Below are positions 1-64,000 of a DNA stretch of 64,000 nt, one piece after another (position 1 is the first letter of the stretch; each line of letters begins with the position of its first letter). The stretch lies in IMG/VR virus record IMGVR_UViG_3300021399_000111, positions 77,936-141,935 of that record; one strand, 5' to 3'. The position numbers were made by a program, and so were the translations under genes. The notes beneath the pieces were generated by a model. That model was not told the DNA's origin. It saw only the letters and a program-made list of their open reading frames with translations, and did not search any database. Origin of the DNA: a virus. Lineage: Duplodnaviria; Caudoviricetes.

Positions 1-111
1 AACTGGTTTTAATCCAGACTTAGCATCAGGTATTGCTCTATCTGAATTTACTGCATAACTATATTCAATAAAATTTATACCTAATTCATTTTTAATATCA
101 TTAGTTATCAA
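1..111 (-). CDS. gyrA: Type IIA topoisomerase subunit A (GyrA/ParC), 5' part only, runs off window
   Basis: Not in ORF track. TTG start at 111 overlaps the GIY-YIG stop, with a GAAGGAG RBS. Translates MITNDIKNELGINFIEYSYAVNSDRAIPDAKSGLKPV, containing the GyrA/ParC RAIPD..GLKPV motif. Confidence 0.9.
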   Translation of the reverse strand, partial: MITNDIKNELGINFIEYSYAVNSDRAIPDAKSGLKPV

Positions 112-833
112 TTTAGTTCTCCTTCTCTACAATATTGAAAAGTATATCCTTCTTGAGTCTTTCTTTTATTTTCTAATACTTCACTAATATGATTTGATTT
201 AAGATTTAAAATTCTTTTACATTCTAATTTATTTGTAAATGGTCCAAATACTTCTCCAGTTTTTATATTTCTTGCTATAAAAGGAGTAACTTTCATCTTT
301 GCTACTCTAATACACTCTTGTAATCTTTCTTCAGTAAAAGTAGCTTTATCAATACAAATTACTCCATTACAATAATACATTTGATTATGAAGCATTCGAT
401 ATATATCACCTTTGCTCATATTATGCTCTCTAGCAAATTCTCTTTGATTAAGAAATTCTCCTAATTTATTACCTTTTAAATCAAATGCATAAAATGGATA
501 ACTACCACATTGTTTTAAAAATTTATCTGTAATTATAATAGTTTCTCCACCATCTTTTGTATTATAGCCTTCTTCAATACTATTATAATAAATTATCCAT
601 TTTTTTTCTTTTTCATCTAACTCTTCTTGAGAATTTGCTGTATCAATAATCTCCCAGATAAAAGATTCTTCAGGGTACTTTCTTAAAGCATTTATAAAAT
701 GAGTATTATAATTTTTTTCTTGTCTTGCTTTATAATAATGTTTATTTTTTCTTTCTTGTAAAGTTTGAATTGTTTGACCAATATAAATTTTATTATTTTC
801 TTTATTTGTTACTTTATAAATTATCCCATACAT
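108..833 (-). CDS. Free-standing GIY-YIG homing endonuclease with C-terminal NUMOD-like DNA-binding repeats
   Basis: N-terminal GIIY...IYIGQT, conserved R/E and GYN..GG motifs; lies between gyrB and gyrA. Confidence 0.9.
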   Translation of the reverse strand: MYGIIYKVTNKENNKIYIGQTIQTLQERKNKHYYKARQEKNYNTHFINALRKYPEESFIWEIIDTANSQEELDEKEKKWIIYYNSIEEGYNTKDGGETIIITDKFLKQCGSYPFYAFDLKGNKLGEFLNQREFAREHNMSKGDIYRMLHNQMYYCNGVICIDKATFTEERLQECIRVAKMKVTPFIARNIKTGEVFGPFTNKLECKRILNLKSNHISEVLENKRKTQEGYTFQYCREGELN

Positions 834-956
834 TTTTTTAAGAACCTCCTTTATTTGTTCTATTATATATGAAAATAAAGGAAGATAATTTATCTACTTT
901 TACCCAATTTGGGTAAAAAATTTTTAAAGATCATGGCAGTCTAGGTCAATGTTTTA

Positions 957-1139
957 TCAGCCTAACTCCCGTGGCTTAAAATTAGGATCTATATTTTGTA
1001 ATAGTTCTTCAAAATATTTTAATCTTTCCTTGTCATCTTCTTCATGATCTTCTGAAAATTCACTTTTAAGTATTAAAGAAAGCTCCTCAAGAACACTTTT
1101 AAATTCTTCATATATTTCACTTAATGTATTATTCTGCAT
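957..1139 (-). CDS. Small acidic hypothetical protein overlapping the gyrB stop
   Basis: ATG lies inside the gyrB end (ATGCAGAATAA); 60 aa. Confidence 0.55.
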   Translation of the reverse strand: MQNNTLSEIYEEFKSVLEELSLILKSEFSEDHEEDDKERLKYFEELLQNIDPNFKPRELG

Positions 1140-3039
1140 TATATTTTCCAGCCTCCTGTGAATGTTCTTTAATATATACCTTCCTTGCGGTTACCCCAGT
1201 TCCCATTAACTGTTCAAATAAAATATCAGTTTCTCTTACATCTTCAACTGTAATTTGCTTAATAATCCTATTATTAGGATCGGTTAAAGTTTCTTCAGTT
1301 TCTTCAACAGACATTTCACCGAGGCCTTTAAGTCTATTTACAGTATATTTCTTACCTTGATTAGCTCTCTTAAATTCTTCAAGTGCTTCATCATTTTTAA
1401 GATACTTATACTCTTTACCTATTGTAATCTTATAAAGAGGAGGAACTCCTGCATAAATATAACCATCTTGAATTAACTGCGGACAAAAATTCCAAATGAA
1501 AGTATAGAAAAGATTCTTAATATGTGCTCCATCAACATCAGCATCGCTCATAATAATAATTTTTCCATATCTCAAATCTTCTTTATCATAGGTAACTTTC
1601 ATTGTTTTTGGATCAATTCTTAAACCAAACGCTTCAATCATTGTCATAATCTCTGCATTTTTCTGAATTTGCGCTAAAGTTGCCTTTTGTGTATTAAGAA
1701 TTTTTCCTCTAACAGGTAAAACTGCTTGTGTTGCGTTATTTCTTGCAAGTTTGATATTACCAGAAGCACTATCACCCTCTGTAATATAAATTTCACATTC
1801 CATTCTATTTTTGGAATTGCAATCGGCAAGTTTACTATCAAATTTAATTACTTTTTCTTTTTTCTTCTTTTCAGTTTCACGAGCTGCATCTCTAGCTTTT
1901 TTAGCCGCCTCCCGCGCTTTACGAGCGGAAATTGCTTTATCAAAAATTACCTTTATATCTTTTTCATTAAAAGATAACCAATTTTGGATATTTTCTGTCA
2001 ATTCAGAAGTAAATGGACTCATATCCAATTTTACAATTCTGCTTTTAGTCTGAGCATCATAAGACACTCCAGATGTTGTGATATTAAATGCAATTAACAT
2101 TCCCTCTTGAATATCAGATCCATCAAGAGTTTCTTCTTTTTCTTTTAACCAACCTTTTTCTTTAAAGAATTTGTTAAATTCTCTTGTAATGGTTGATTTA
2201 ATTTGTGTAATATGAGGTCCACTATCTGTTTCACCTGTATTAACATATGAAATAAGATTAAGTGAATAATTAGTTGTATAAGTTAATACAAAATCTAATC
2301 TATTTTTCCCATTAGAATAATTAATATTTAATCTATTTTTAAGAATTTCATTATCTTTAACGATGTCATTAACTAAATCATTTAATCCATTATTAGAATG
2401 ATATGTAATTAAATCTTTCCCATTATGAGTTAAATTAATAGTTAATCCTTTGCATAGGCAAGTTAAAGTATGAAATAATTTTTTAATTCTCTCTACATCA
2501 ATCTGAGTGTGTGTAAAAAACTTTGCGCTAGGCTTCCATTCAACAATAGTACCAGTATGAAAATCGCCTTGTTTTCCGACTTCTCTTTTATTAAAAACTC
2601 CTTCAACAAAATGAATATGCTCACTTCTACCATCTCTATAGGTGTAAACATCAAGCCAATTACTTAAAAAATTAGTAAGTTTTGAACCAATACCGTTAAG
2701 ACCAAGAGCAGTCCCTTCATAAACTCCATCATCAGAAAATTTTCCAGATGTATTTAAAACATCAAAAGAAGCCTGAAGAACAGTTTCTCCATCTTCACGC
2801 TTAACATTAACAGGAAATCCCTGAGCAAAGTCTTCTACTCTACAACAACCATCATCTTGATAATCTACATTAATAATATTTCCATGCCCTACCGACCATT
2901 CATCTATTGCATTAGAAACAATTTCAATAAGTAATTGAGTTGAATATTCTGTTGAACCGCAATAAACTCCAGGACGAAGCCGAGTAAATTCAAGAGGTGA
3001 TAATGATTCAATTGATTTATCATTATATAAATTACTCAT
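1129..3039 (-). CDS. gyrB: Type IIA topoisomerase subunit B (GyrB/ParE)
   Basis: RLRPGVY, EIVSNAIDE, GKF, GLNGIG (GHKL ATPase); TEGDSA, PVRGKILN, DADVDGAHI (TOPRIM); RLKGLGEM. Confidence 0.97.
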   Translation of the reverse strand: MSNLYNDKSIESLSPLEFTRLRPGVYCGSTEYSTQLLIEIVSNAIDEWSVGHGNIINVDYQDDGCCRVEDFAQGFPVNVKREDGETVLQASFDVLNTSGKFSDDGVYEGTALGLNGIGSKLTNFLSNWLDVYTYRDGRSEHIHFVEGVFNKREVGKQGDFHTGTIVEWKPSAKFFTHTQIDVERIKKLFHTLTCLCKGLTINLTHNGKDLITYHSNNGLNDLVNDIVKDNEILKNRLNINYSNGKNRLDFVLTYTTNYSLNLISYVNTGETDSGPHITQIKSTITREFNKFFKEKGWLKEKEETLDGSDIQEGMLIAFNITTSGVSYDAQTKSRIVKLDMSPFTSELTENIQNWLSFNEKDIKVIFDKAISARKAREAAKKARDAARETEKKKKEKVIKFDSKLADCNSKNRMECEIYITEGDSASGNIKLARNNATQAVLPVRGKILNTQKATLAQIQKNAEIMTMIEAFGLRIDPKTMKVTYDKEDLRYGKIIIMSDADVDGAHIKNLFYTFIWNFCPQLIQDGYIYAGVPPLYKITIGKEYKYLKNDEALEEFKRANQGKKYTVNRLKGLGEMSVEETEETLTDPNNRIIKQITVEDVRETDILFEQLMGTGVTARKVYIKEHSQEAGKYNAE

Positions 3040-3095
3040 TTTTTATCCTTTCCTTATTATTATAATATATATTATAACATATTTTTTATAAAAAA

Positions 3096-3614
3096 TCAAA
3101 TTATTATATCATAATTCTTAACTAATTTATTAAATTTTCCTTGATTATTTGCGGCAACCGCATCTGCTAATTCATTTTCTAAAAATCCAACATGACCAAC
3201 ACATTTTTTTATTGAATAATTAGTAGAATTATTTAATAAATTATATAATTCTTTTATTAAATCTAAATTTTTAATTGGCTTTCCTTTTGCTCTTGTCCAT
3301 CCATTTTTTGCCCATTCCCAAATCCATGTGGAACATAATTGTACTACATATGCAGAATCAGAATAAATAATATAGAAATAATTTTTATCTTCTTGAGCCT
3401 TTTTGAGAACATGTATTACCGCCATTAATTCCATTCTATTGTTTGTTGTATTTTCAAATCTTTCTGAATAACAATAGGCTAAATGAGTTTCTGGAAGCTT
3501 ATTTTGTTTAAATACAGTTGATAATCTTATAACACCAAAACCGCCAGGTCCTGGATTCCCAGAACAGGCTCCATCAGTATAATATTTTAATAAAGGTTTT
3601 TTTAACTTTTCCAT
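3096..3614 (-). CDS. rnhA: Ribonuclease HI
   Basis: YTDGACSGNPGPGG, TTNNRMEL, YSDSAY, GH.G..ENELAD motifs. Confidence 0.96.
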   Translation of the reverse strand: MEKLKKPLLKYYTDGACSGNPGPGGFGVIRLSTVFKQNKLPETHLAYCYSERFENTTNNRMELMAVIHVLKKAQEDKNYFYIIYSDSAYVVQLCSTWIWEWAKNGWTRAKGKPIKNLDLIKELYNLLNNSTNYSIKKCVGHVGFLENELADAVAANNQGKFNKLVKNYDIII

Positions 3615-3757
3615 TTTTTCCGCCCTCTAAAAAATCATTTCTGTATTCATAACTCTTATTCATTCTATTATAATTATAACAAAATTTTCGATAAAAGTCA
3701 AGCCTTTTTTATTTTTATTTTACTAGAAAAGAACAAGAAGATTTTTACAATAAAAAA

Positions 3758-3792
3758 AATGGCTGCGGAGGACTTTCGCCTTCTGCAGCCAT
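3758..3792 (-). terminator. Intrinsic terminator after the endolysin
   Basis: GGCTGCAGAAGG..CCTCCGCAGCC hairpin followed by a T-run on the minus strand. Confidence 0.8.
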
Positions 3793-3796
3793 AGAA

Positions 3797-4786
3797 TTAA
3801 AGTTTTTTAGTATATTTTAAATTAATCCATCCACCAGCTTTTAACTCACCCCAATTATTTTGTTCATTAATAATAGTATAAACACCTTTATCTTTAATAG
3901 AACCAATAATTGCATATGTTACACCTGGGCCTTTTCTAATATTTAAAGAAGATGCAGTAACTTGTATTTTATATTCATTGCTTGTAATTGCTGGGGTAGA
4001 TTGATTGATAATGGTAACATAATTAGGATTATTTATATAAATCCAGCCTGCACCGCTTTTTAATTTACCCCAACCATTTTGTTCTGCAACAATTGTATAA
4101 ACACTATTTTTTGGAACAACAGTAGTAATGGCGTATGAGTTTCCAGGGCCAGAACGAACATTTAATTCATTAACTTTAATTTTGACTTGATAATTTACTA
4201 TAGATGCCTCAGAAGTAGGAGTATCTTGTGCAGCTACTTTATTTAAAAAACTTCTCCAATTAACTAATGCTGTTTCATTTTTACACCATGGTTGAGGACA
4301 AGGTTTTCCAGTTACCATATGATGCATAATAACATGATCAATATCAATATTATATTTTTTCATAAGATATTTAGTTAATTCAATAGCATTATTAATGGTA
4401 GCCTCAGTTAAATACCAATCATCATCATTAACACTTAATGAGGTTGTATTTTTTTTATTACTACACATTTCAATACTAATGGAATTAGCATTTGTGCAGA
4501 TTTTATAAAATTTAGCACCTAAGGAAGTTTTACTACTTAATTTGCTTCCACCTACTGCCCATGTATAGCGATTTTCAATATTTCCATTATATTGAACAAT
4601 TTCAAAATCATCTACAATAAAATCTGCTGATGCCTCTCTAGAACTAGTGGCAAACATATTTGCAGCTGCAATAGCTTTGCCTCTAGAAGAAGAGGTTCCC
4701 GCAGTATAATGTAACACTATAAACTCAATTTTTCTTTTACTTTTAGCTGAAGTATTATGAGTGCTATTTCTTTGGATAATGTTCAT
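3797..4786 (-). CDS. Endolysin: N-acetylmuramoyl-L-alanine amidase (Amidase_2) with two SH3b cell-wall-binding domains
   Basis: IVLHYTA, SISIEMC, H..VTGKPCP motifs; two LNVR/IRxGPG...WGxLK.G.GWI repeats. Confidence 0.93.
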   Translation of the reverse strand: MNIIQRNSTHNTSAKSKRKIEFIVLHYTAGTSSSRGKAIAAANMFATSSREASADFIVDDFEIVQYNGNIENRYTWAVGGSKLSSKTSLGAKFYKICTNANSISIEMCSNKKNTTSLSVNDDDWYLTEATINNAIELTKYLMKKYNIDIDHVIMHHMVTGKPCPQPWCKNETALVNWRSFLNKVAAQDTPTSEASIVNYQVKIKVNELNVRSGPGNSYAITTVVPKNSVYTIVAEQNGWGKLKSGAGWIYINNPNYVTIINQSTPAITSNEYKIQVTASSLNIRKGPGVTYAIIGSIKDKGVYTIINEQNNWGELKAGGWINLKYTKKL

Positions 4787-5085
4787 CTTAAACTTTCCTC
4801 CTCATCATTTTCTAAATTTCTCATAGCAGTTTCATATACAATTCCATCTTTAGTATTTTCTGCTTTTGATTTAGAACAATAAATTCCATAAGATAATGTT
4901 TCTCCAATAACTGCGCCTAATAAGGTAATTAAAGGAGTGAAATCAGGCATTGTTTCAATTGCATAAGCAAGTGAAAATGATTTAATTGTAACCCAACCTG
5001 TAAAAATTTCTAATAAAAAGAAATTTATAAATAATAGAGTTAATAATAATTTACTATAAGATATTTTTTTCTCTTTCTTTTTCAT
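4783..5085 (-). CDS. Putative holin
   Basis: Two hydrophobic segments, basic N-terminus, stop overlaps the endolysin start. Confidence 0.6.
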   Translation of the reverse strand: MKKKEKKISYSKLLLTLLFINFFLLEIFTGWVTIKSFSLAYAIETMPDFTPLITLLGAVIGETLSYGIYCSKSKAENTKDGIVYETAMRNLENDEEESLR

Positions 5086-5126
5086 TGGCTCTCCTTTATA
5101 AAAAAAGAGAAGCTAATGCTTCTCTT

Positions 5127-6362
5127 TTACATTTGTTCTGCAATTTGGGCTATTTGACTACGATAAATATTTTGTAATTCAATTTCTCCATAAAAAGGTT
5201 GTCCTTTAAATACTTCTGATACCCTTCTCATTCCATTACTTGAGCCAGCATAAGAACTCATATCTACTTGATGAGCATAATCACCATCAATAATACAAAT
5301 ACTATCTTCTCCGATTCTTTGTAAAGCTAATCTCATTAATTCAATATCAAGATTTTGAGCTTCAGAAATATACACTGCGGCATTCATATTTGTAGTATCA
5401 TATCCGCGGATATCAGACATAGGTAATAAAATTAATTGACCATCATCAATTAATCTTTCTACAGCAATTCTATCACCTAATTTACTTTCCAATAAATTAC
5501 CAATTTGTGAATCTAAAAGTTTTTCTGTTCTAGATCCTGGATAAAATCCTAATCTTGCTGATCCTTTAGTTGCAACTGTGTTACAAAAAATAACTATCTT
5601 ATCAATTTTGCCACGTTCGAGTAGAGAAAACATATATCCAAAAGCTAAATATGTTTTTCCAGTTCCCGCCCTTCCGCGCAGCATAGTAATTTGATTATTA
5701 TTTAAACTATCTAAAGCGCATTGCTGGAATACATCACCATGTTTAGGAGCTATTTTTCCAAACATTTTAGATTCTGCTTTTTGAAATTGAACTGCTTCAT
5801 AATGTTCGTTTTTCCATTTATATTTATCAATTAATTCACCATTGCACTTAATAATAATATATTGATTTTCTAATAAATTATAGCTATTTTTATTATCCAC
5901 ATAATGAGTATAAAAATCAGCTAATCCTGTTTCATCTAATTCTAGGATTTTAAATCCTGTATATTCATTTGTTTCTTGCTGTCCTAATAGAGTGGCATCT
6001 AATCCAACTATATCTTTTGCAATTTTATAACATAATAAATCTTGAGTAATAAATTCTACATCTTTATTAAGTGCGGAAATAATTATTTTATTATCCGCAT
6101 TTAAAGGTAAAGAATAAGAAGATAAAAGTGGATCTAAATCTGTTGTGTAAGGGATTACTTCATATTTATTTTGGTTGTTGGCTAAGAGACGAATTATAGT
6201 ACGAGCATTATACTTTATTTCTTCATCTCTTGTACTTGAAGTTTTAATATTTTCTAATTCATTTATTGTAATTCCAGATATATAAAATTTTTCTTCTTCA
6301 TTAAAAGCTTTTTCTTGTAAAGCAAGCAAACTACAAGTGTCATAAAATTTAATTTTACTCAC
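5127..6362 (-). CDS. phoH: PIN-PhoH family protein
   Basis: N-terminal PIN domain (FYDTCSL, ADNKII, TQD); GRAGTGKT Walker A, LGFYPG, IRG, EAQN, DGD..Q.D, YRS motifs. Confidence 0.92.
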   Translation of the reverse strand: MSKIKFYDTCSLLALQEKAFNEEEKFYISGITINELENIKTSSTRDEEIKYNARTIIRLLANNQNKYEVIPYTTDLDPLLSSYSLPLNADNKIIISALNKDVEFITQDLLCYKIAKDIVGLDATLLGQQETNEYTGFKILELDETGLADFYTHYVDNKNSYNLLENQYIIIKCNGELIDKYKWKNEHYEAVQFQKAESKMFGKIAPKHGDVFQQCALDSLNNNQITMLRGRAGTGKTYLAFGYMFSLLERGKIDKIVIFCNTVATKGSARLGFYPGSRTEKLLDSQIGNLLESKLGDRIAVERLIDDGQLILLPMSDIRGYDTTNMNAAVYISEAQNLDIELMRLALQRIGEDSICIIDGDYAHQVDMSSYAGSSNGMRRVSEVFKGQPFYGEIELQNIYRSQIAQIAEQM

Positions 6363-55801: not shown

Positions 55802-56667
55802 TTATACTATTAAGTAGCGGAAACGAGGAATATTGCGGGGATGGGGAAAGATTGCTAAAATTGCGGGAGTGGGGTGGCCGCGCTTCATCTAGCCCCTAAC
55901 CTTCCAATCCGCCCTCGTTTCCGCCATCCTTCTTAATATTAAAAAATTTTTTATTTGTCAAGTCATTGCCACTAGGCACCCCCGACCGCCGCACTTGACA
56001 TTTATAAAAAATTATGATATAATATAAATGTAAAATAGGAGGACTGTCTTTAACAGCCTCCTTGTTTTGTTGCTATTGTTTATATATAAAAAATTGCAGC
56101 CCGAGTGATTGCAACCCTATTTTATATCCCGACAGTGTCGCACCCTGATATCGGCTTGCTATTTTATTATTATCTCCTTTCTTATTTTACATCTATATTA
56201 TATCATATTTTTTTATAAAATTCAAGTAAGGCTCCGGCGTTAAAATTGTAGGTGAATTTGCTTGCTCTTGTTCGTTCTAGTTTAATCAAAAGCCATAAAA
56301 TGTAAATTTGACCGACTGGAAAATTTTGAGGCAAATTTTCCTTCTATTGTGGCGGCATATGGATTGCGGGATTAAGGCAGCGCACTTGCTAGGTCACTTT
56401 TGGCATATGAAATTTCGCATATGGGATCGGGTGGGGTAGAACGGCGCCTCCCGTTGGTCCGCGCCGCGACCAGCGTTTCAGGATAACAAAACTAGGGTTA
56501 TTTAACCCATTTCCGCACAAAAAATCGCTAAAATACTTGACAAATTAAAAATTCGGCCCATGCGCAGCATGATCGGGCCGCAAAACAGGTGTTATTATAA
56601 CAAAAGTTATTAAAAAAATAAAAAAATAAGGAAAATCTTGCGATTTTCCTTAAAAAACAGGCGGTTT

Positions 56668-57027
56668 TTATTTCTTTTTAGGCTGGCGGCATTCAATAAC
56701 ATCAATTTTGAAACGCTTTTCGCCAATTTTTACCTCAATTAACTTGTTTTGCGTAACAATTGTGATGTTTTCAGGCTCTACACCGATGCATCTGGTGAGA
56801 TTTGCGACAATAGTGTCAAATAACTCCCGCTTTTCATCAGAGACTTTCACGGGATGCGGCTTGCGCTCTTTCTTGACAGGCTCTGCCGCCCTTGCGTCAC
56901 GGCTGACATCACGGGAACCTAATTCCATTTTTGCCATCTCTTCGGCTTCCGCCTTTGTGACAGGCTCGCCATCTTTTTCAGCATCCGCCATAATCTCTGC
57001 GACAAGTTTGTCAAAATCTTTCATCAC
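56668..57027 (-). CDS. Hypothetical protein (family B, copy 1)
   Basis: DGE.VT..EA.EMAKME shared with 61163-61573. Confidence 0.75.
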   Translation of the reverse strand: MMKDFDKLVAEIMADAEKDGEPVTKAEAEEMAKMELGSRDVSRDARAAEPVKKERKPHPVKVSDEKRELFDTIVANLTRCIGVEPENITIVTQNKLIEVKIGEKRFKIDVIECRQPKKK

Positions 57028-57080
57028 AGCCCCCTTATCTAGGGGCTAGGAATTCTGCCTAGCCCCGACACCTTTGTCAG

Positions 57081-57443
57081 TTACTCTGCGGTCACCGCAA
57101 AGTAGCGAGTGACACGCTTGTCAGTAGTGCTATCGACACGTCCTGCCTTCTTCATCTGAGTAAGCAGGCTAGTCACCTTCTGAGAAGTCAGCCCGACAAG
57201 AGCGTCAGTGCTCTTAATCAGTTCGGTGACGGTGACAGGCTCACCCATGGCGACAAGACCGTCATAGATGGCATCCTTCAGCCCCTCGTTCTCCACCTGA
57301 GCCTTAGTGGGCTTGCGGTTTGCACTCTTCTTATCAAGAGCGGCGATACGCTCATCCACAAACTTCACCAGGGCATCCTCGCCATTAGCAACCAGCACAT
57401 TCTTGATAGCCTTAAAGTAATCCTTCTGAGTCATCTTTTCCAT
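57081..57443 (-). CDS. Winged-HTH DNA-binding protein (family A, copy 2)
   Basis: KMTQ.DYF, ERI.ALDKKSANRKPTK.Q.ENE. Confidence 0.75.
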   Translation of the reverse strand: MEKMTQKDYFKAIKNVLVANGEDALVKFVDERIAALDKKSANRKPTKAQVENEGLKDAIYDGLVAMGEPVTVTELIKSTDALVGLTSQKVTSLLTQMKKAGRVDSTTDKRVTRYFAVTAE

Positions 57444-57746
57444 AATGCAACACCTCTTCTTTCTGTTGTTGGGTTTTCTTTGTTACAAGAACATTGTACC
57501 ATATTCAGTTTTGATTGTCAAGTGCTTTTTTGAAATTGACTGTCTAGGTTTTCCTTGTGCGCACGAGAGAGGTTTTCCTAGCCCTTTAAAGTCGCTTTCC
57601 TTATTTCTTATGTATTTATTATAGCACTTTTTTTATTGATTGTCAACAACTTTTTTTATTTTTTTGTAAGGCGGGCGGTTGACTTTCTCCCCTCACCTTG
57701 TATAATAATTATAACAAAAATTTTTTAAAAAATCAATATCGGAAAA

Positions 57747-57873
57747 TTGCACAAATTTCGGGATCTAGAAACTAAAAAATTTGTGCAAAATTTCACTTGA
57801 CAAAAAGTGCGGGAAGTGGTATACTGGAAAATTCGGCGCTCGCACGACTGAAAGGAGTCGCGCTCGCGCCGCC
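57747..57873 (+). promoter_or_regulatory. Operator/promoter/hairpin cassette (other copies 58979-59104, 60373-60487, 62136-62248, 63072-63185; degenerate 61064-61144, 56512-56580)
   Basis: TTGCACAA..TTGTGCA inverted repeat, TTGACA-N17-TA(T/C)A(A/C)T, GRAAWWYTYG, GC-rich hairpin. Confidence 0.85.
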
Positions 57874-57916
57874 AAAATTGCGGGTGTTATTTTTTATGTA
57901 AAAAAATAGGGGATGA

Positions 57917-58189
57917 TTAAAACACCCCCTCACGCTTGCAGATGCTAGCAAAGCAATCAGTAATGCAATTCCAGTCATCTTCATCCGCCGCATATTCCAA
58001 AAGGTCATCAAAAGAAGATCCATCGGGAACGCCTTCCTGTAACCACCAGTCCAAAATATCTTCATCCCCGATATTTCTGATATATTTATCCATCCACATC
58101 AGAACTTCTGCTCTTGTAACAATTACATCACTCATTTTGTTCACCTCACTTTCTAGGGCTATTATATCATTTTTTAAGGGACTTGTCAA
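57917..58189 (-). CDS. Hypothetical protein (start probably MSDV at about 58135)
   Basis: GAAAGTGAGG leader; W...GVPDG motif. Confidence 0.7.
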   Translation of the reverse strand: MTSPLKNDIIALESEVNKMSDVIVTRAEVLMWMDKYIRNIGDEDILDWWLQEGVPDGSSFDDLLEYAADEDDWNCITDCFASICKREGVF

Positions 58190-58254
58190 GAGGTGGGCGG
58201 GAAACTATTTTTTAAAATTTAGTTTCCGCGCCCTTTATACCTCGGTTCCCGCAA

Positions 58255-58491
58255 TTAAATTCTTCTTAAAAATTCTTCTGCGGTTTCAGTCTTTTTTCTA
58301 TCTTCGATAGAAATTTCCTCATAAATAGGCACATCAGCAAATTTTACCAAATCATAAATTAACATTGCCAACTGTCCTTCATCATCAACATTGTAGCAAT
58401 CCGTAATACATTCCCCATTTACATAAAATCCAAAGTCACCATTTTTTGCTTTTACAAAATAAATATTATTTTTCATTTTTATTTCCCTCAC
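58255..58491 (-). CDS. Hypothetical protein
   Basis: GAAAGTGAGG leader. Confidence 0.65.
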   Translation of the reverse strand: MREIKMKNNIYFVKAKNGDFGFYVNGECITDCYNVDDEGQLAMLIYDLVKFADVPIYEEISIEDRKKTETAEEFLRRI

Positions 58492-58508
58492 TTTCTATAT
58501 TTATTATA

Positions 58509-58916
58509 TCATTTTTTATTGTATTTGTCAAGTGCTTTCTGCAATTTTTCAATCATTTTGATATGAGAATTGCAATAATCAATCGCCCACTCAGTAGCGA
58601 TATACTCTTCCTCTAAGAAAAAGTAGTCCCGCATACTTAAAGACTCTTTTAAGTCGGTGTCTTCCATATCATCAACCTCATCTAGTGTTTCATTATGTCC
58701 GATTTCGTGGAAGAATGAAATAGTAAAGACATTCACCCGACTATCAAGCCCACACTCACGGCATAAAGCAAGGAATTCATCATCATGCGGAAGCGGTTTA
58801 TCAGTAACTTCGATAAGGCTATCTGCATACCAATAGCAAAAGCCATCACTTTCAACGACCTTGCAATCAAAAGCTTTTGCAATCTTATTCAATTTGCGGA
58901 GTGCCTGTCTAGTCAT
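58509..58916 (-). CDS. HExxH metallopeptidase-like protein (family C, copy 1)
   Basis: FFHEIGH ... EE..A..WA. Confidence 0.7.
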   Translation of the reverse strand: MTRQALRKLNKIAKAFDCKVVESDGFCYWYADSLIEVTDKPLPHDDEFLALCRECGLDSRVNVFTISFFHEIGHNETLDEVDDMEDTDLKESLSMRDYFFLEEEYIATEWAIDYCNSHIKMIEKLQKALDKYNKK

Positions 58917-59124
58917 TGTGTTTCCCTCACTTTCTGAAATAAGTATAACAAAAATTTTTTACAAAAGCAACATACAGGTTGCACAAAATTGCGGGAAAAA
59001 TTTTGTGCAAAATTTTTTGTAAAAATCGCTTGACAAAAATGCGGCGATGTGTTATAATGAAAAATTCGGGTCTTTTGCGAAGTGCAACGCCCGCAAAAGA
59101 CCCGCCCATTAAAGGGCGGGCTCA

Positions 59125-59346
59125 TTATTTTAATTTTGACTTATCAATTGAATTAAATGCCTGATATTTTTCTTTTAAAATCCAAGTATTACGAACAATG
59201 CGCCATACTCTCCAAAAAGGTCTTTGCCATAAATACTTAAATTTAAAAGCATACTTATAAACCATACAAAAATTTTTAAAATTTTTCTTTTCATTCCAAC
59301 TGATAATCGAATTATAGCTATTTTCAGAAATATTATAAAATGGCAT
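59125..59346 (-). CDS. Hypothetical protein
   Basis: GGAGG RBS. Confidence 0.5.
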   Translation of the reverse strand: MPFYNISENSYNSIISWNEKKNFKNFCMVYKYAFKFKYLWQRPFWRVWRIVRNTWILKEKYQAFNSIDKSKLK

Positions 59347-59370
59347 TTTTTCTCCTCCCCTTGTGGGCGG

Positions 59371-60069
59371 TTAATCCGCCCACAATCTAGCGTCAAAGTG
59401 CTTGTGCTTACGATAGCAATATGCGAGAATTTCCTTTTCAATGAGGCAATCATCAAGCCCCTTATGCTCCTCTTCGAAGGTGTTGTCCTTCGTGATAAAG
59501 CGGTAAATGATTTCCGCGGTGAGCCTGGGCTGTGGGGTCTTGTGCTTGGTCATATAGCCATTACTCTCACAAAACTTGCGATAAGTGGGCATCGTTGCGA
59601 TTAACTGTCTAGACATCTTCAGTGTGTCGCAGATTTCCACATCCTTGGGGAAAAAGTAACGGTATTTAGACTTAGTGAGCCACCGTTCAGTATTGTTCAG
59701 AGAGCCATAATCAAACCGCATATTGTGGGCATATACCTGCTCCACCTCATAATCCGCGATATCCTGTAACAGTGCCTTGCGGATATTGTAGAAGCTCGTG
59801 AGAATGCGGGTTCCCGCCTTAATATCTTCCCAATATTCGGGAATCTTCTTTGCATAATATGCGCTTTTCATCAGTTCCGCTTCATCGAGGAAAACGTCTG
59901 CATTTACGAAACTTCTTTCCGCATAAACGTTTCCGTGCTTGTCAGTAACCACCCATCCCAAATCATATACAAGCATATTGCAAGGGGTTACCTCGTCAAT
60001 AGTGTAATCGCAGGGCGCGGTTTCACAATCCAAAACAATCTTATAGTTTCTGCGTCTGTCAATGCCCAT
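59371..60069 (-). CDS. DEDDh 3'-5' exonuclease (DnaQ-like)
   Basis: VLDCET, AHNMRFD, DT, H.GLDD motifs. Confidence 0.9.
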   Translation of the reverse strand: MGIDRRRNYKIVLDCETAPCDYTIDEVTPCNMLVYDLGWVVTDKHGNVYAERSFVNADVFLDEAELMKSAYYAKKIPEYWEDIKAGTRILTSFYNIRKALLQDIADYEVEQVYAHNMRFDYGSLNNTERWLTKSKYRYFFPKDVEICDTLKMSRQLIATMPTYRKFCESNGYMTKHKTPQPRLTAEIIYRFITKDNTFEEEHKGLDDCLIEKEILAYCYRKHKHFDARLWAD

Positions 60070-60508
60070 CTAAATCTGTCCTCACTTTCTTTTGTTGCGT
60101 CAACCTCATTGACAAGTACAGTATAGCATAGCGGTGGGGATTTGTCAACACTTTTATTCATAAATTTCAAAAATTCTTTTAATGACAATGATAGCCACTT
60201 TAATGCCATAAGCATATCCATTCTTAAATTCACTTTTATCTGTATCGGTTGCAATATCGTAATAATGCTCCCATAACTCTTTAACACATTCTCTCGCTTT
60301 TCTCTTCATTTTATTTCCCTCACTTCCTAAAGAAAGTATACACCCATCACATAAAAAAGTCAATAAGTAATATTGCACAAAATTCGGGATCTTTTCAACA
60401 AAAAATTTGTGCAAATTGCCTATTGACAAAATATCGAGAGTATGTTACAATGGAAAATTCGCGCCGTGTCGAAGTGCACACGGCGCGCCAAATAAAAGGG
60501 ACAGTGGT

Positions 60509-60799
60509 TTACCACCACTGTCCCATAAAAGCAAGGCTATCTTCCATTGCTACCTGATAGTCGTCTACTTCTTCATCTTCCCCAAACAAAGACCGCTGAC
60601 AAGGCGGACAAATGCCAGAATCCAGCACTTCTTTCTGCTCGGGATGAAGATAGGGGAAAGTATTTTCAACAGGTGACTGCCTGCCCCACTTGCGGTAGTC
60701 CTGGAAATACACAGGAACCTTAGTCACGCTCCCACAGACAGGGCAAGTGCAGGAAACTTCAATAAGGTAATCAGTATTTTCACGGATAATTTCTTTCAT
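60509..60799 (-). CDS. Zinc-ribbon hypothetical protein
   Basis: CPVCG...SGICPPC. Confidence 0.7.
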   Translation of the reverse strand: MKEIIRENTDYLIEVSCTCPVCGSVTKVPVYFQDYRKWGRQSPVENTFPYLHPEQKEVLDSGICPPCQRSLFGEDEEVDDYQVAMEDSLAFMGQWW

Positions 60800-61015
60800 T
60801 TATTCTACTCTCACCTCTACATTAAAGATAGCCTTAACAATCATTACGAGTACCCAAACCACAAAAGACAACTTCCAAGACCATACAAGAGCAAGTCCAA
60901 GCCAATTCAAAAGCAGAACGGCAAGATAGACAAGACCACTTGTGACAAGGAACGAAAAACCAAAACCGAAAATAACTAATAAAATTGCTGTAATAATCAT
61001 TTTTGTTTCCCTCAC
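60800..61015 (-). CDS. Small membrane protein
   Basis: Hydrophobic. Confidence 0.65.
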   Translation of the reverse strand: MRETKMIITAILLVIFGFGFSFLVTSGLVYLAVLLLNWLGLALVWSWKLSFVVWVLVMIVKAIFNVEVRVE

Positions 61016-61162
61016 TTTCTAAAGAAAGTATACTCTTATTTTAGGATAAATACAATAGATAGATTGCACAAAAAATCAGCATGAAATTTATGTAAATTGA
61101 CTATTGACAAAGGAATTCGTCGCGCTGCGATCCATAGCGCGACGGCAAGAAAAACCGCCCAA

Positions 61163-61573
61163 TTACTTGGGCGGTCTGTGCTTGGTCAACTTGAGCGTGT
61201 AGCGATTTCCATTATAGTCGAAGTGCAGACAGGTCTCGGTTTCCATCTGGACTTCCGCACCATCATCCCCCTCAAATTCAAGAAGTCCTTCAAGATATTC
61301 CTTGATGTTGGTCAAGATAAATCCCTTGTCTGCGTCAACCTTGCGCTCTTTCGGCTTGCGGGGTTTCTTTTCGGGCTCACCCTGGGTGTAGTTCTTTACC
61401 TCTTTGGCGCCCATCTCCATCTTTGCCATTTCAAGGGCTTCCTCTTTAGTGACTTCCTCACCATCTTCAAGGGCTTCCTTGTAGATTTCCTCGGCTAACT
61501 GTTCAAGTGTCTTTGCCATTTGTATCACCTCACTTTCTGAAAAGATTATAACATTTTTTGGCGGGGTTGTCAA
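61163..61573 (-). CDS. Hypothetical protein (family B, copy 2; start probably MAKT at about 61519)
   Basis: Paralogue of 56668-57027. Confidence 0.75.
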   Translation of the reverse strand: MTTPPKNVIIFSESEVIQMAKTLEQLAEEIYKEALEDGEEVTKEEALEMAKMEMGAKEVKNYTQGEPEKKPRKPKERKVDADKGFILTNIKEYLEGLLEFEGDDGAEVQMETETCLHFDYNGNRYTLKLTKHRPPK

Positions 61574-61635
61574 GGGGATGCGGGGAAACTATTTTTTAAT
61601 TTTTAGTTTCCCCGCGCGTGATACCTTGGGAATCG

Positions 61636-61800
61636 CTAAACCTGCTGGAATTCATCAGTGTTAATAACTTCGAATTCCACAGATTTAGTCAGAAGATCAT
61701 TATCCAGAAGAAATTCAAGAAGATTACACTGGTCGAGGGTTAAAGACAGATGCCCAAGATACGAAGTAGTTTCAGGGTTCCTAATAATCACATTTATCAT
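61636..61800 (-). CDS. 54-aa protein missed by the ORF track (family D, copy 1)
   Basis: MINVIIRNPETTSYLGHLSLTLDQCNLLEFLLDNDLLTKSVEFEVINTDEFQQV; promoter and GAAAGTGAGG leader. Confidence 0.75.
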   Translation of the reverse strand: MINVIIRNPETTSYLGHLSLTLDQCNLLEFLLDNDLLTKSVEFEVINTDEFQQV

Positions 61801-61911
61801 TTTTTATTTCCCTCACTTTCTAAAAAGATTATAGCATTTTTTTATGATATTGTCAAGGGGTTTGTGCGGAAACTATTTTTTAATTTTAGTTTCCGCACAC
61901 ATTGGAAGTTG

Positions 61912-62070
61912 TTAAGCAGTTTCAAAATCTTCCATAGAAAGAATCTGAATATTGGTATGAGGTAACAGACCTTTTCTCTCAAGGAGGTCAAGAAGATTTT
62001 TCTGCTCAGGAGTTAAACTCAAGAAGCATTGGTCATAAATTTTGGGACCTGTAATAATCACATTTATCAT
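61912..62070 (-). CDS. 52-aa protein missed by the ORF track (family D, copy 2)
   Basis: MINVIITGPKIYDQCFLSLTPEQKNLLDLLERKGLLPHTNIQILSMEDFETA. Confidence 0.75.
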   Translation of the reverse strand: MINVIITGPKIYDQCFLSLTPEQKNLLDLLERKGLLPHTNIQILSMEDFETA

Positions 62071-62309
62071 TTTTTGTTTTCCTCACTTTCTAAAGAAAGT
62101 ATACACCTGCCGCGCAAAAAAGTCAACAGGTAATGTTGCACAAAATTCGGGATCAAAATAATAAAAAATTTGTGCATTTTTTCTATTGACAAAAAATGTG
62201 GGGTATGTTATAATGGAAAGTTTGGTGCGCCGCGACCCATGGCGCACCGCCAAACAAAAAAAGACCCTAGGGGCTTACACCCCTAGGGCTTGTGAGAGGT
62301 CAAGGGCTA

Positions 62310-62711
62310 TCAGCCCTCAACCTCGTCCTCGACCTCTGCAACGGCGAAGCGGGACACCCGCTTCTCGCTGGTCTTGACAACCGCGCCCGCCTTGACAAGC
62401 TGGGTCATCAGAGAGGTAATCTTCTGCGTGTTAAAGTCGGACAGGCGCTCGTCAGCCTTGAGAACCTCGGTGACGGTCATAGGAGCGTCAGCCTTTTCCA
62501 GTACCTCGAAGATAACCGCCTTGATGCACTCGTTCTCGGTCTGGGTCTTCGTAGGCTTGCGGTTAGCGGACTTCTTGTCCAGTGCGGAAATGCGCTCGTT
62601 GGCAAAAGCCACGATGTCCTCTGCGGGAACCTTGGTCGGCTCACCATTTGCCATAGCGATAATTGCGTTAAAGTAATCTCTCTGCGTCATCTTGTTTGCC
62701 ATAATCAACAC
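62310..62711 (-). CDS. Winged-HTH DNA-binding protein (family A, copy 3)
   Basis: Close paralogue of 57081-57443. Confidence 0.75.
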   Translation of the reverse strand: MLIMANKMTQRDYFNAIIAMANGEPTKVPAEDIVAFANERISALDKKSANRKPTKTQTENECIKAVIFEVLEKADAPMTVTEVLKADERLSDFNTQKITSLMTQLVKAGAVVKTSEKRVSRFAVAEVEDEVEG

Positions 62712-63200
62712 CTCTTTCTTTTGTTAAGTTTTAGGGGTTATCCCCTTGCTACAAGAACATTGTACTACTTTTTGTTTGGAATGTCAAGCACTTTTTTTAT
62801 TTTTTATTGCTTGAACCGTTGTTCCTACGGCAAGTCGGGGAGCGTACTGCCCGAAACTTTTTTCATCCCTTTGTTACAAGAACATTGTAACATATCTTTA
62901 TTCAGTTGTCAAGCACTTTTTTTATTTTTTTGAGGAGTGCTAACCTCGTGGAATTGACTGAACAAGTTTGCCTTGCGCGCGCTGAATAGGTTGTCTTGCT
63001 ATCTTTAAGTCGTTTCCCTTACCTTGTAAATACATTATAATATAATTTTTTCTAAAAATCAAGTAGGAATATTGCACAAAATCCAGGATCTTTTTGCGGA
63101 AAATTTTGTGCAAAATTTCACTTGACAAAATTTTAGGGGTATGGTATAATGGAAATTTCGCGCCGCAGCAGTTCTTTGCGGCGCGTCAAAAAAACAGGGG

Positions 63201-63728
63201 TTATGATAACCCCTGTTCCTCTTCAAGAATTCCATTTGCAATGTAGAACGCCTGTAATGCAATCAGCACTTCCGCCCACATCTTCTTGACCTTGCGGGGA
63301 TGCTGACGGCAATACCATACTGCCCAGGCGGTTGCCATAATCTCATCGGGCAGGCTGAAATACTGCCATTCAAGAACCTTTGAGCGGTCTGCGTCTGCGG
63401 TTCCCATTTCTTCGGAAATCCGTTCCTTTTCTGCAATGCAGAAATTATATACCTCAGGACCGATATCATCATTTGCCTTATGATGACCGACTTCATGGAG
63501 CAGAGAGAAGATGAAAGGATACTTGACTTCATAGTCGAAGCGTTCCTTTACAAATTCCTTGAACCAAATATCCCCGATCTCGTTTTCAGTAACCTTATAG
63601 GTTACTTTTTCCTTGTCGTAGTAATAGGCATATTCATCGGAAAGCTGGGCGGACTTGATGCCAAAAGGAGCAAGTTGTGCGGTAACCGCCTGATTTAATT
63701 TTGCCTTACCTTTAACTCTTTTAACCAT
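63201..63728 (-). CDS. HExxH metallopeptidase-like protein (family C, copy 2)
   Basis: LLHEVGH ... YF.LPDE..A.AWA. Confidence 0.7.
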   Translation of the reverse strand: MVKRVKGKAKLNQAVTAQLAPFGIKSAQLSDEYAYYYDKEKVTYKVTENEIGDIWFKEFVKERFDYEVKYPFIFSLLHEVGHHKANDDIGPEVYNFCIAEKERISEEMGTADADRSKVLEWQYFSLPDEIMATAWAVWYCRQHPRKVKKMWAEVLIALQAFYIANGILEEEQGLS

Positions 63729-64000
63729 TTTGTTTACCTCTCTTTCTAAAACCTATTATAGACTATTTGCGGTTAGTTGTCAAGGGCTTTCCGCAAATTA
63801 TTTTTCTGCTCTTGACGAGTAGGGTACTTGGCACTTTTCATAGTGCGAGTGCCAGTGTTAAAGCCATTAGTGTCACGCTGGATTTTCTGCAAGGCTTTGT
63901 AGGCTTTTTTAGTCATTCCCTTTTTATTTCCGATGCTTGCCATTGTCTGTCCCTCACTTTCTAAAAAAATTATATCAAAAAATTATAAAAAAATCAAGTA

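Follow-up and report, generated by a model that had tools for sequence, protein, structure and literature searches.

Repeated intergenic modules that combine an early promoter with a terminator stem-loop are known from T4-like phages as promoter-early stem-loop (PeSL) cassettes (PMC2839356, PMC4122927). A synthetic part that joins a unidirectional terminator to a constitutive antisense promoter has been engineered in E. coli (Brophy and Voigt 2016, PMC4731013), where it represses the gene through polymerase collisions and antisense RNA in roughly equal shares (PMC4731013). Natural examples of opposing transcription include the helD and pps dual promoters of B. subtilis, at which the stronger opposing promoter suppresses the weaker one by interference (PMC12802891), the convergent pR and pL promoters of coliphage 186 (Callen et al. 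2004, as cited in PMC12802891 and PMC4731013), and the antisense transcripts with defined starts that have now been seen in several virulent phages (PMC10914365). Here we analyzed a 64,000-nt stretch of viral DNA (IMG/VR record IMGVR_UViG_3300021399_000111, positions 77,936 to 141,935; hereafter the window), in which small early genes are separated by repeated cassettes. Each complete cassette carries, besides the sense promoter of the next gene, a near-consensus promoter that is followed by a GC-rich hairpin and points backward into the 3′ end of the adjacent gene.

The window is the final 64 kb of a 141,935-bp contig and ends where the contig ends. The two contig ends overlap by 127 bp, which indicates a circular assembly, and the 25 tRNA genes and one tmRNA gene of the genome, together with the phage sigma factor, terminase and portal genes just beyond the contig junction, identify a large phage. 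It has sigma-A type promoters with a TG extended -10, and most genomes that share the cassette motifs are Clostridia; it is an uncultured phage of approximately 142 kb that infects gut or rumen Clostridia. The cassette array spans the contig junction into genome positions 1-5,400 and comprises 10 complete and 4 short copies over approximately 12.8 kb, all of its protein genes being on the minus strand. Five complete cassettes and two that lack a -10 fall within the window. A first, sequence-only reading of the window had counted five complete and two degenerate cassettes, and this count was correct for what proved to be a larger array. The exact TTGCACAAA motif is concentrated here, with 11 of its 14 genome-wide copies inside an array that makes up 9% of the genome, and by strict criteria hairpin-capped consensus promoters are confined to the array and to the + strand. 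Both promoter-like sites (52 in the region, against 20.5 +/- 4.8 in shuffles) and terminator-like sites (20 against 8.4 +/- 2.8) are in excess, and, compared with shuffles, the folding z-scores of the hairpin pairs are -2.3 to -8.0. These values and the clustering of TTGCACAAA indicate that the cassettes are more than a chance arrangement.

Read along the gene strand, a cassette consists of the stop codon of one gene, a hairpin close to it (hp2), a second hairpin (hp1) and then, on the opposite strand, the backward promoter, followed by two arms that form an inverted repeat and by the sense promoter of the next gene (Table 1). The leftward sigma-A promoter, the inverted repeat and the near-consensus rightward promoter that the sequence-only reading had assigned to each complete copy are all present in the window. 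The five backward promoters match the consensus hexamers at 11-12 of 12 positions, and all have a 17-bp spacer and a TG extended -10; in the two short copies of the window, TTGACA leads directly into the hairpin. When the 10 complete copies were aligned, the -35 (plus AAA), the TG and the -10 were invariant or nearly so, while the 17 spacer bases were free to vary. Among divergent pairs from this and related phages (n = 36), the hairpin-capped member averaged 11.72 hexamer matches out of 12 compared with 9.75 for its partner, and it was the stronger promoter in 33 pairs and the weaker in none, the sense promoter having the weaker -35 (TTGATT, TTGACT or TTGCTT). Because the hexamers and TG are held invariant while the spacer is free, and because the backward promoter is the stronger member of its pair, the backward promoters appear to be real elements under selection. 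Their orientation is also strongly biased. Hairpin-capped consensus promoters were convergent with the neighboring gene in 69 cases and co-directional in 21, compared with 156 and 1012 for plain promoters (Fisher p = 1e-37; gene context was classified with a Shine-Dalgarno filter on the open reading frames, ORFs). Most of the 21 co-directional cases are the sense member of face-to-face pairs around one hairpin, an arrangement seen in some relatives (12 of 138 modules), in which the promoters face each other across a single hairpin approximately 45-60 bp wide. The rightward promoters thus do face the 3′ end of the next gene, as had been described, and, also as described, no + strand ORF with a Shine-Dalgarno sequence was found after the backward promoters of the window.

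The hairpins differ between the two strands in the tails that follow them. In this genome, the 8 nt after hp2 contain 5-7 U on the gene strand and mostly 0-3 U (0-6 overall) on the promoter strand; in relatives, at least 5 U were found on the gene strand for 52 of 61 hp2 hairpins and on the promoter strand for 7 of 61. In most copies hp2 is predicted to be a good intrinsic terminator on the gene strand only. The hp1 hairpin is GC-rich (about -14 to -22 kcal/mol) and has a weaker AAUUUUCC tail on the gene strand. The conserved GRAAWWYTYG that the sequence-only reading had placed after the backward promoter is present, but it is merely the reverse complement of this T-rich tail. Since neither hairpin is followed by a + strand U-run in most copies, both would act as one-way terminators. 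Short forms without a -10 are more often two-way: in relatives, 6 of 8 of their hp2 hairpins have at least 5 U on the promoter strand, and in this genome the short cassettes g891 and g2668 have an hp2 (genome 942-970 and 2742-2763) with a + strand tail of 6 U in 8, while the + strand tail of g4255 hp2 is weaker (4 U in 8). The position of hp1 relative to the backward promoter is nearly constant. It begins 8-9 nt past the -10 in the complete window copies, and in 72 of 114 modules from many phages, chosen irrespective of strand, the hairpin begins 7 or 8 nt past the -10, that is, at the expected start site, where the sequence-only reading had put it. That reading was also right that the hairpins, whose stem and loop sequences differ between copies, stay paired.

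The interpretation that we favor, although our confidence in it falls somewhat short of even, is that each cassette is a boundary module in which a one-way terminator and an antisense promoter together damp and insulate early genes, because the layout of gene, one-way terminator and antisense promoter matches that of the Brophy and Voigt part. A cassette would end one early-gene block, fire back into that block and start the next. As the hairpin U-runs lie on the gene strand only, polymerase from the backward promoter would pass the hairpins unstopped and run back through the preceding gene block, producing an antisense RNA with a hairpin cap at its 5′ end and colliding head-on with sense polymerases. 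The likely effect would be that the block is damped or shut off, and insulated from the next block.

Several observations weigh against this interpretation. Two-way terminators are only modestly depleted ahead of backward promoters (14% versus 21% otherwise, p = 0.037); put differently, one-way termination is the default, found for 79% of terminators without a promoter behind them and 86% of those with one (p = 0.037). The hp1 hairpin is kept, with varied sequence, in short copies that have no -10 (4 here; in relatives, 14 versus 65 long copies), which suggests that hp1 has some role independent of the backward promoter. With a strand-neutral choice of hairpins, the gene-strand hp1 RNA folds slightly better than the promoter-strand RNA (59 versus 43, p = 0.025), and when hp1 and hp2 are folded together the gene-strand RNA folds better in all five window copies; wobble pairs give no strand signal (6 G.T versus 6 A.C). 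In addition, it is odd that a strong sense promoter should be opposed by another strong promoter from its own sigma class, unless one of them is regulated. The sequence-only reading had itself named, as an outcome that would count against it, hairpins acting only as terminators of minus-strand genes, and this is half borne out, because the hairpins resemble minus-strand terminators and persist where the -10 is absent. On the other side, hp2 is the better terminator, the U-tail of hp1 is weak and the distance from hp1 to the -10 is fixed; hp1 probably serves a double duty, as a back-up terminator or spacer for sense transcription and as the 5′ stem of the backward transcript.

The inverted repeat between the two promoters consists, in each complete window copy, of TTGCACAAA / TTTGTGCA(A) arms, with the sense promoter beside the left arm. 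The spacing between arms is 14 or 24 nt, the right arm being displaced by one helical turn in the alignment. The constant feature is the distance from the TTTGTGCAA arm to its own -35, in the same orientation, of 8-9 or 18-19 nt. Such an arm accompanies 114 of the 665 promoters in a set of loci selected without reference to the motif, and an upstream arm is present at 74% of hairpin-capped promoters versus 12% of others. Of 103 arms at the canonical distance, 42 have no partner arm. Because each arm is phased to its own -35 and many are partnerless, the inverted repeat is, as judged from sequence, two phased promoter-upstream elements placed back to back, and not necessarily a site for a dimeric repressor; the arms do not show the two half-sites at a fixed mutual spacing that characterize a dimer operator. 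The arm motif also lies upstream of ordinary promoters in Clostridia chromosomes, in one example between sugar-transporter genes and ahead of a conserved 42-49-aa ORF, and for this reason a host factor would be at least as likely as a phage protein to read the arms. The phasing, the partnerless arms and the chromosomal occurrences all speak against the earlier proposal of an operator under one repressor. The candidate repressors that had been put forward, two 'family A' winged helix-turn-helix (wHTH) paralogues encoded in the array (Table 1), are 52% identical, and a structure model of one of them (predicted local distance difference test, pLDDT, 89.5) confirms a winged helix at the C terminus, of the kind found in Fur, MarR and MecI. 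Nothing, however, links these proteins to the motif: among 120 bacterial loci with the arm motif few encode a wHTH homologue. A literature search for the arm motif returned only primers.

Other repeated elements were noted as well. In the long-spaced cassettes (57756-57770, 60382-60391 and equivalents), TTCGGGATC, which contains GATC, is conserved after the sense-side arm, and it is also kept in relatives. A second repeat, at 58199-58237, 61577-61615 and 61866-61900, is an inverted repeat of GGAAACTA, about 12 A/T bases and TAGTTTCC; it adjoins the -35 of three consensus sense promoters, has a U-run on neither strand and resembles an operator or a PeSL-like stem-loop of another type. Each wHTH paralogue gene is preceded by three tandem promoters of 125-bp direct repeats (57474-57664 and 62740-62930), and a TACAA-N5-TTGTA palindrome overlaps the TACAAT -10 in two repeat copies per gene (4 of 6 promoters), which suggests very high, perhaps self-controlled, expression. 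In host genomes, the arm motif stands 7 nt upstream of the -35 of the 42-49-aa ORF at L132:2020-2265 and at about 17 other Clostridia loci (mostly Oscillospirales), sometimes in three copies; the ORF matched no Pfam or NCBIfam family.

The cassettes are not restricted to this phage. Scanning viral contigs for the exact pattern of arms plus TTGACA gave hits in more than 114 of them, with lengths of 5-180 kb, and downstream of the arms in relatives there was an ordinary gene (180 promoters), a promoter and hairpin (65) or a short form (14), defined as a hairpin directly after TTGACA. A DNA search of a 50,697-record phage collection gave no match to the cassettes. It is possible, although we regard this broader proposal as a good deal less than established, that the hairpin-capped backward promoter with its host-type upstream element is a widespread dedicated phage device that times the shut-off and insulation of early blocks by convergent transcription, possibly with a polymerase roadblock.

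In a stricter form of the roadblock, the polymerase held at the backward promoter, and not its RNA, would stop read-through sense polymerases over the hp2 U-run and so complete termination, by means of a long-lived open complex at a perfect promoter. The over-optimized promoter, with consensus -35, TG and -10, a 17-bp spacer and a G or GG directly after the -10, agrees with this idea, as does the retention of TTGACA in short copies. Arithmetic on the hairpin coordinates places the sense release point at hp2 at about +30 to +42 relative to the backward start, roughly where, from polymerase footprint sizes, an arriving polymerase and a bound one would touch with their leading edges. We nevertheless consider it unlikely, since a spacer need not be a hairpin, slow promoter escape is supported by nothing and the missing promoter-strand U-run of hp2 is left unexplained; it also overlaps with the boundary-module interpretation and does not exclude it.

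A different possibility is that the core is a PeSL-like homology patch for shuffling early genes, the backward promoter being a passenger and the hairpins plain terminators. Nucleotide similarity to dozens of other phage contigs (70-85%) is indeed limited to a core of about 150 bp, which extends between the sense -10 and the backward -10, with the arms inside, and ends at the hairpin, and the neighboring genes are unrelated. Gene order around a conserved 232-aa protein varies among relatives, with modules at the joints. Both observations fit the suggestion of the sequence-only reading that the repeats may be recombination points, and the PeSLs of T4-like phages behave in this way (PMC2839356). 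A passenger promoter would be expected to decay, yet the backward promoter is the best-conserved and strongest of each cassette, and the promoter-hairpin spacing is fixed. Shuffling and a regulatory role can coexist, and we find it rather improbable that recombination is the whole explanation.

The backward promoters are all oriented toward the sigma-factor gene and the late (packaging and portal) genes, and the final one (genome 5089), which has no gene opposite, precedes the promoter of the sigma gene itself by approximately 450 nt. With ten consensus promoters spread evenly in one orientation and few + strand terminators along the way, the array could be taken as a set of strong geneless promoters that sequester host polymerase or draw the genome into the cell, two ideas that the sequence-only reading had also raised. 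We regard this as quite improbable: ten sites are few for a sink, the circular assembly fixes no genome ends, and in neither case are the fixed hairpin, the upstream elements and the face-to-face promoter pairs of relatives explained. Least probable of all is that the cassettes encode discrete small RNAs of the form 5′ hairpin, A-rich linker and second hairpin, acting in trans or as decoys; small RNAs had been among the proposals of the first reading. Two-hairpin folds reach a z-score of -8, a transcript starting at the hairpin base would have a stable 5′ end and cassette 2 has a + strand U-rich tail after hp2, but most copies lack a same-strand termination signal after hp1 or hp2 (as noted above for relatives), hairpin and loop sequences are not conserved between copies, both strands fold about equally well, and in Rfam searches at the gathering score and at E up to 5 the cassettes matched no family.

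Four further candidates were considered. CRISPR-repeat mimics were set aside for stems that are too long and sequences that are all different, HK022 put-like RNAs for the lack of a conserved sequence and R-loop replication origins for the excessive number of copies; integron attC sites were likewise discounted as no integrase was seen, with no dedicated test made.

The features of the window cassettes are collected in Table 1. Beyond the right end of the array, a 400-bp non-coding gap follows the final cassette (L001, the genome, 5165-5540), and then comes the phage sigma-factor gene (genome 5602-6699; phrog_5767), in which the C-terminal ~45 residues show additional matches to HNH/Lar-like zinc-finger families. 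At the left edge, a GC-rich, ORF-less stretch of approximately 270 nt (window 56240-56510) separates the early array from + strand genes further left; a structured RNA or a DNA-level site may be present there, and Rfam gave no match for the stretch. Next to it, at 55988-56232, two perfect consensus promoters face each other (+ 55995-56023 and - 56225-56197) within 53-nt inverted-repeat arms, 87% complementary, around an ORF-less 139-nt segment, and could form a convergent small-RNA pair.

Table 1. Predicted features of the cassettes in window coordinates; antisense promoter positions start at the first base of the + strand -35 hexamer.
Feature	Position	Strand	Description
Short cassette s1	56537..56652		TTGACA 56537-56542 without -10; imperfect GC hairpin 56554-56580
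Short cassette s1 terminator hairpin	56627-56652		Serves gene 56668-57027
Cassette 1 sense promoter	57708..57736	-	TTGATT-17-TATAAT; first of three tandem promoters, wHTH gene 57081-57443
Cassette 1 paired upstream elements	57747..57788		TTGCACAAA at 57747, complement 57780-57788
Cassette 1 antisense promoter	57797..57825	+	TTGACA-17-TATACT, TG
Cassette 1 hp1	57834-57871		dG -22.5
Cassette 1 hp2	57908-57930		Minus-strand terminator overlapping stop of gene 57917-58135
Cassette 2 sense promoter	about 58970-58942	-	TTGCTT-17-TATACT, assigned by reading
Cassette 2 arms	58979 and 59002-59010		Short arm spacing
Cassette 2 antisense promoter	59030-59058	+	12/12 hexamer matches, TG
Cassette 2 hairpins	hp1 59067-59104, overlapping hp2 59101-59120		Below gene 59125-59346; sole window copy with a U-rich tail on the + strand as well
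Cassette 3 sense promoter	60363-60335	-	TTGACT-17-TATACT
Cassette 3 arms	60373 and 60406-60414		
Cassette 3 antisense promoter	60423-60451	+	
Cassette 3 hairpins	hp1 60460-60487, hp2 60498-60524		hp2 overlaps stop of gene 60509-60799; 8-nt tail of hp2 with 7 U on minus strand, 1 U on + strand
Short cassette s2	61064..61175		Left arm 61064, right arm degenerate, TTGACA 61104 without -10
Short cassette s2 hairpins	hp1 61118-61144, hp2 61154-61175		Below gene 61163-61519
Cassette 4 sense promoter	62126-62098	-	
Cassette 4 arms	62136 and 62169-62177		
Cassette 4 antisense promoter	62186-62214	+	12/12, TG
Cassette 4 hairpins	hp1 62224-62248, hp2 62265-62288		hp2 minus-strand terminator; below wHTH gene 62310-62702
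Cassette 5 sense promoter	63062-63034	-	
Cassette 5 arms	63072 and 63105-63113		
Cassette 5 antisense promoter	63122-63150	+	12/12, TG
Cassette 5 hairpins	hp1 63159-63185, hp2 63193-63217		Overlap stop of gene 63201-63728
Next cassette, sense promoter	63969..64000	-	TTGATT-17-TATAAT
Next cassette, arms, antisense promoter and hairpins	Beyond window end, across contig junction		Antisense promoter at genome 184-212

No experimental model exists for the large uncultured phages of gut and rumen Clostridia, and a module of approximately 150 bp, present in 10-14 copies per genome and common to many of these phages, is a concrete element that can be synthesized. If the boundary-module interpretation is true, it would account for the way in which dozens of takeover genes with promoters of their own are separated and switched off without a dedicated repressor. 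It would also suggest that TTTGTGCAA is read upstream of Clostridia promoters by a host factor or through a polymerase contact, and it would provide natural gene-control parts for these bacteria, which are hard to engineer. Should the broader proposal of a widespread dedicated device be correct, the cassettes would represent a new layer of early-gene control in large Clostridia phages and the natural, evolvable equivalent of a part known from synthetic biology.

Among known phage systems, the host-takeover module of Bacillus phage SPO1 is a region of approximately 13 kb with many small orphan early genes, each with an unusually strong sigma-A promoter, and the early array described here is likewise a block of approximately 13 kb of small orphan genes with their own sigma-A promoters. 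To our knowledge, no hairpin-capped backward promoters or paired upstream elements are known in SPO1. Lambda oop and P22 sar are short phage antisense RNAs that lower the expression of a regulatory gene, their promoters converging on its leader or 3′ end; each is present once, ends at a defined terminator and takes part in lysis-lysogeny control, whereas the cassettes are a repeated module in an early-gene array. As for a cis-antisense arrangement in general, the backward promoter lies at the 3′ end of a gene and is oriented against it, and the intervening terminator has U-runs on the gene strand only in most copies, with the modest depletion of two-way forms given above. Trans-acting small RNAs are a poorer match, with the same-strand terminator mostly absent and neither a conserved sequence nor a known family. 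Convergent-promoter switches find a likeness in those relatives whose promoters face each other across one hairpin; here, in contrast, the backward promoter opposes gene blocks hundreds of bases long and not a promoter 45-100 bp away. We found no paper describing a hairpin-capped backward-promoter cassette.

The synthetic antisense part shares with the cassette the order of gene, one-way terminator and strong promoter firing back into the gene. The cassette differs from it in being natural, in occurring in 10-14 copies per genome, in having a hairpin at the start site and in being coupled to a divergent sense promoter and upstream elements. PeSLs and the cassettes are alike in recurring between small orphan early genes, in joining a host-type early promoter to a terminator and in being conserved while their neighbors vary; a role as recombination points has been proposed for both. 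The cassettes have the strong sigma-A type promoter within a repeated intergenic motif, and a gene-strand stem-loop terminator is predicted from the T-rich tails of hp2 and hp1. In PeSLs, however, the stem-loop and promoter have the same direction, while here the promoter next to the hairpin points against the genes, and the present phage infects Clostridia and is of a different kind. As PeSLs have neither a backward promoter nor paired upstream elements, the cassette is not a member of that group; the PeSL is nevertheless the closest natural system.

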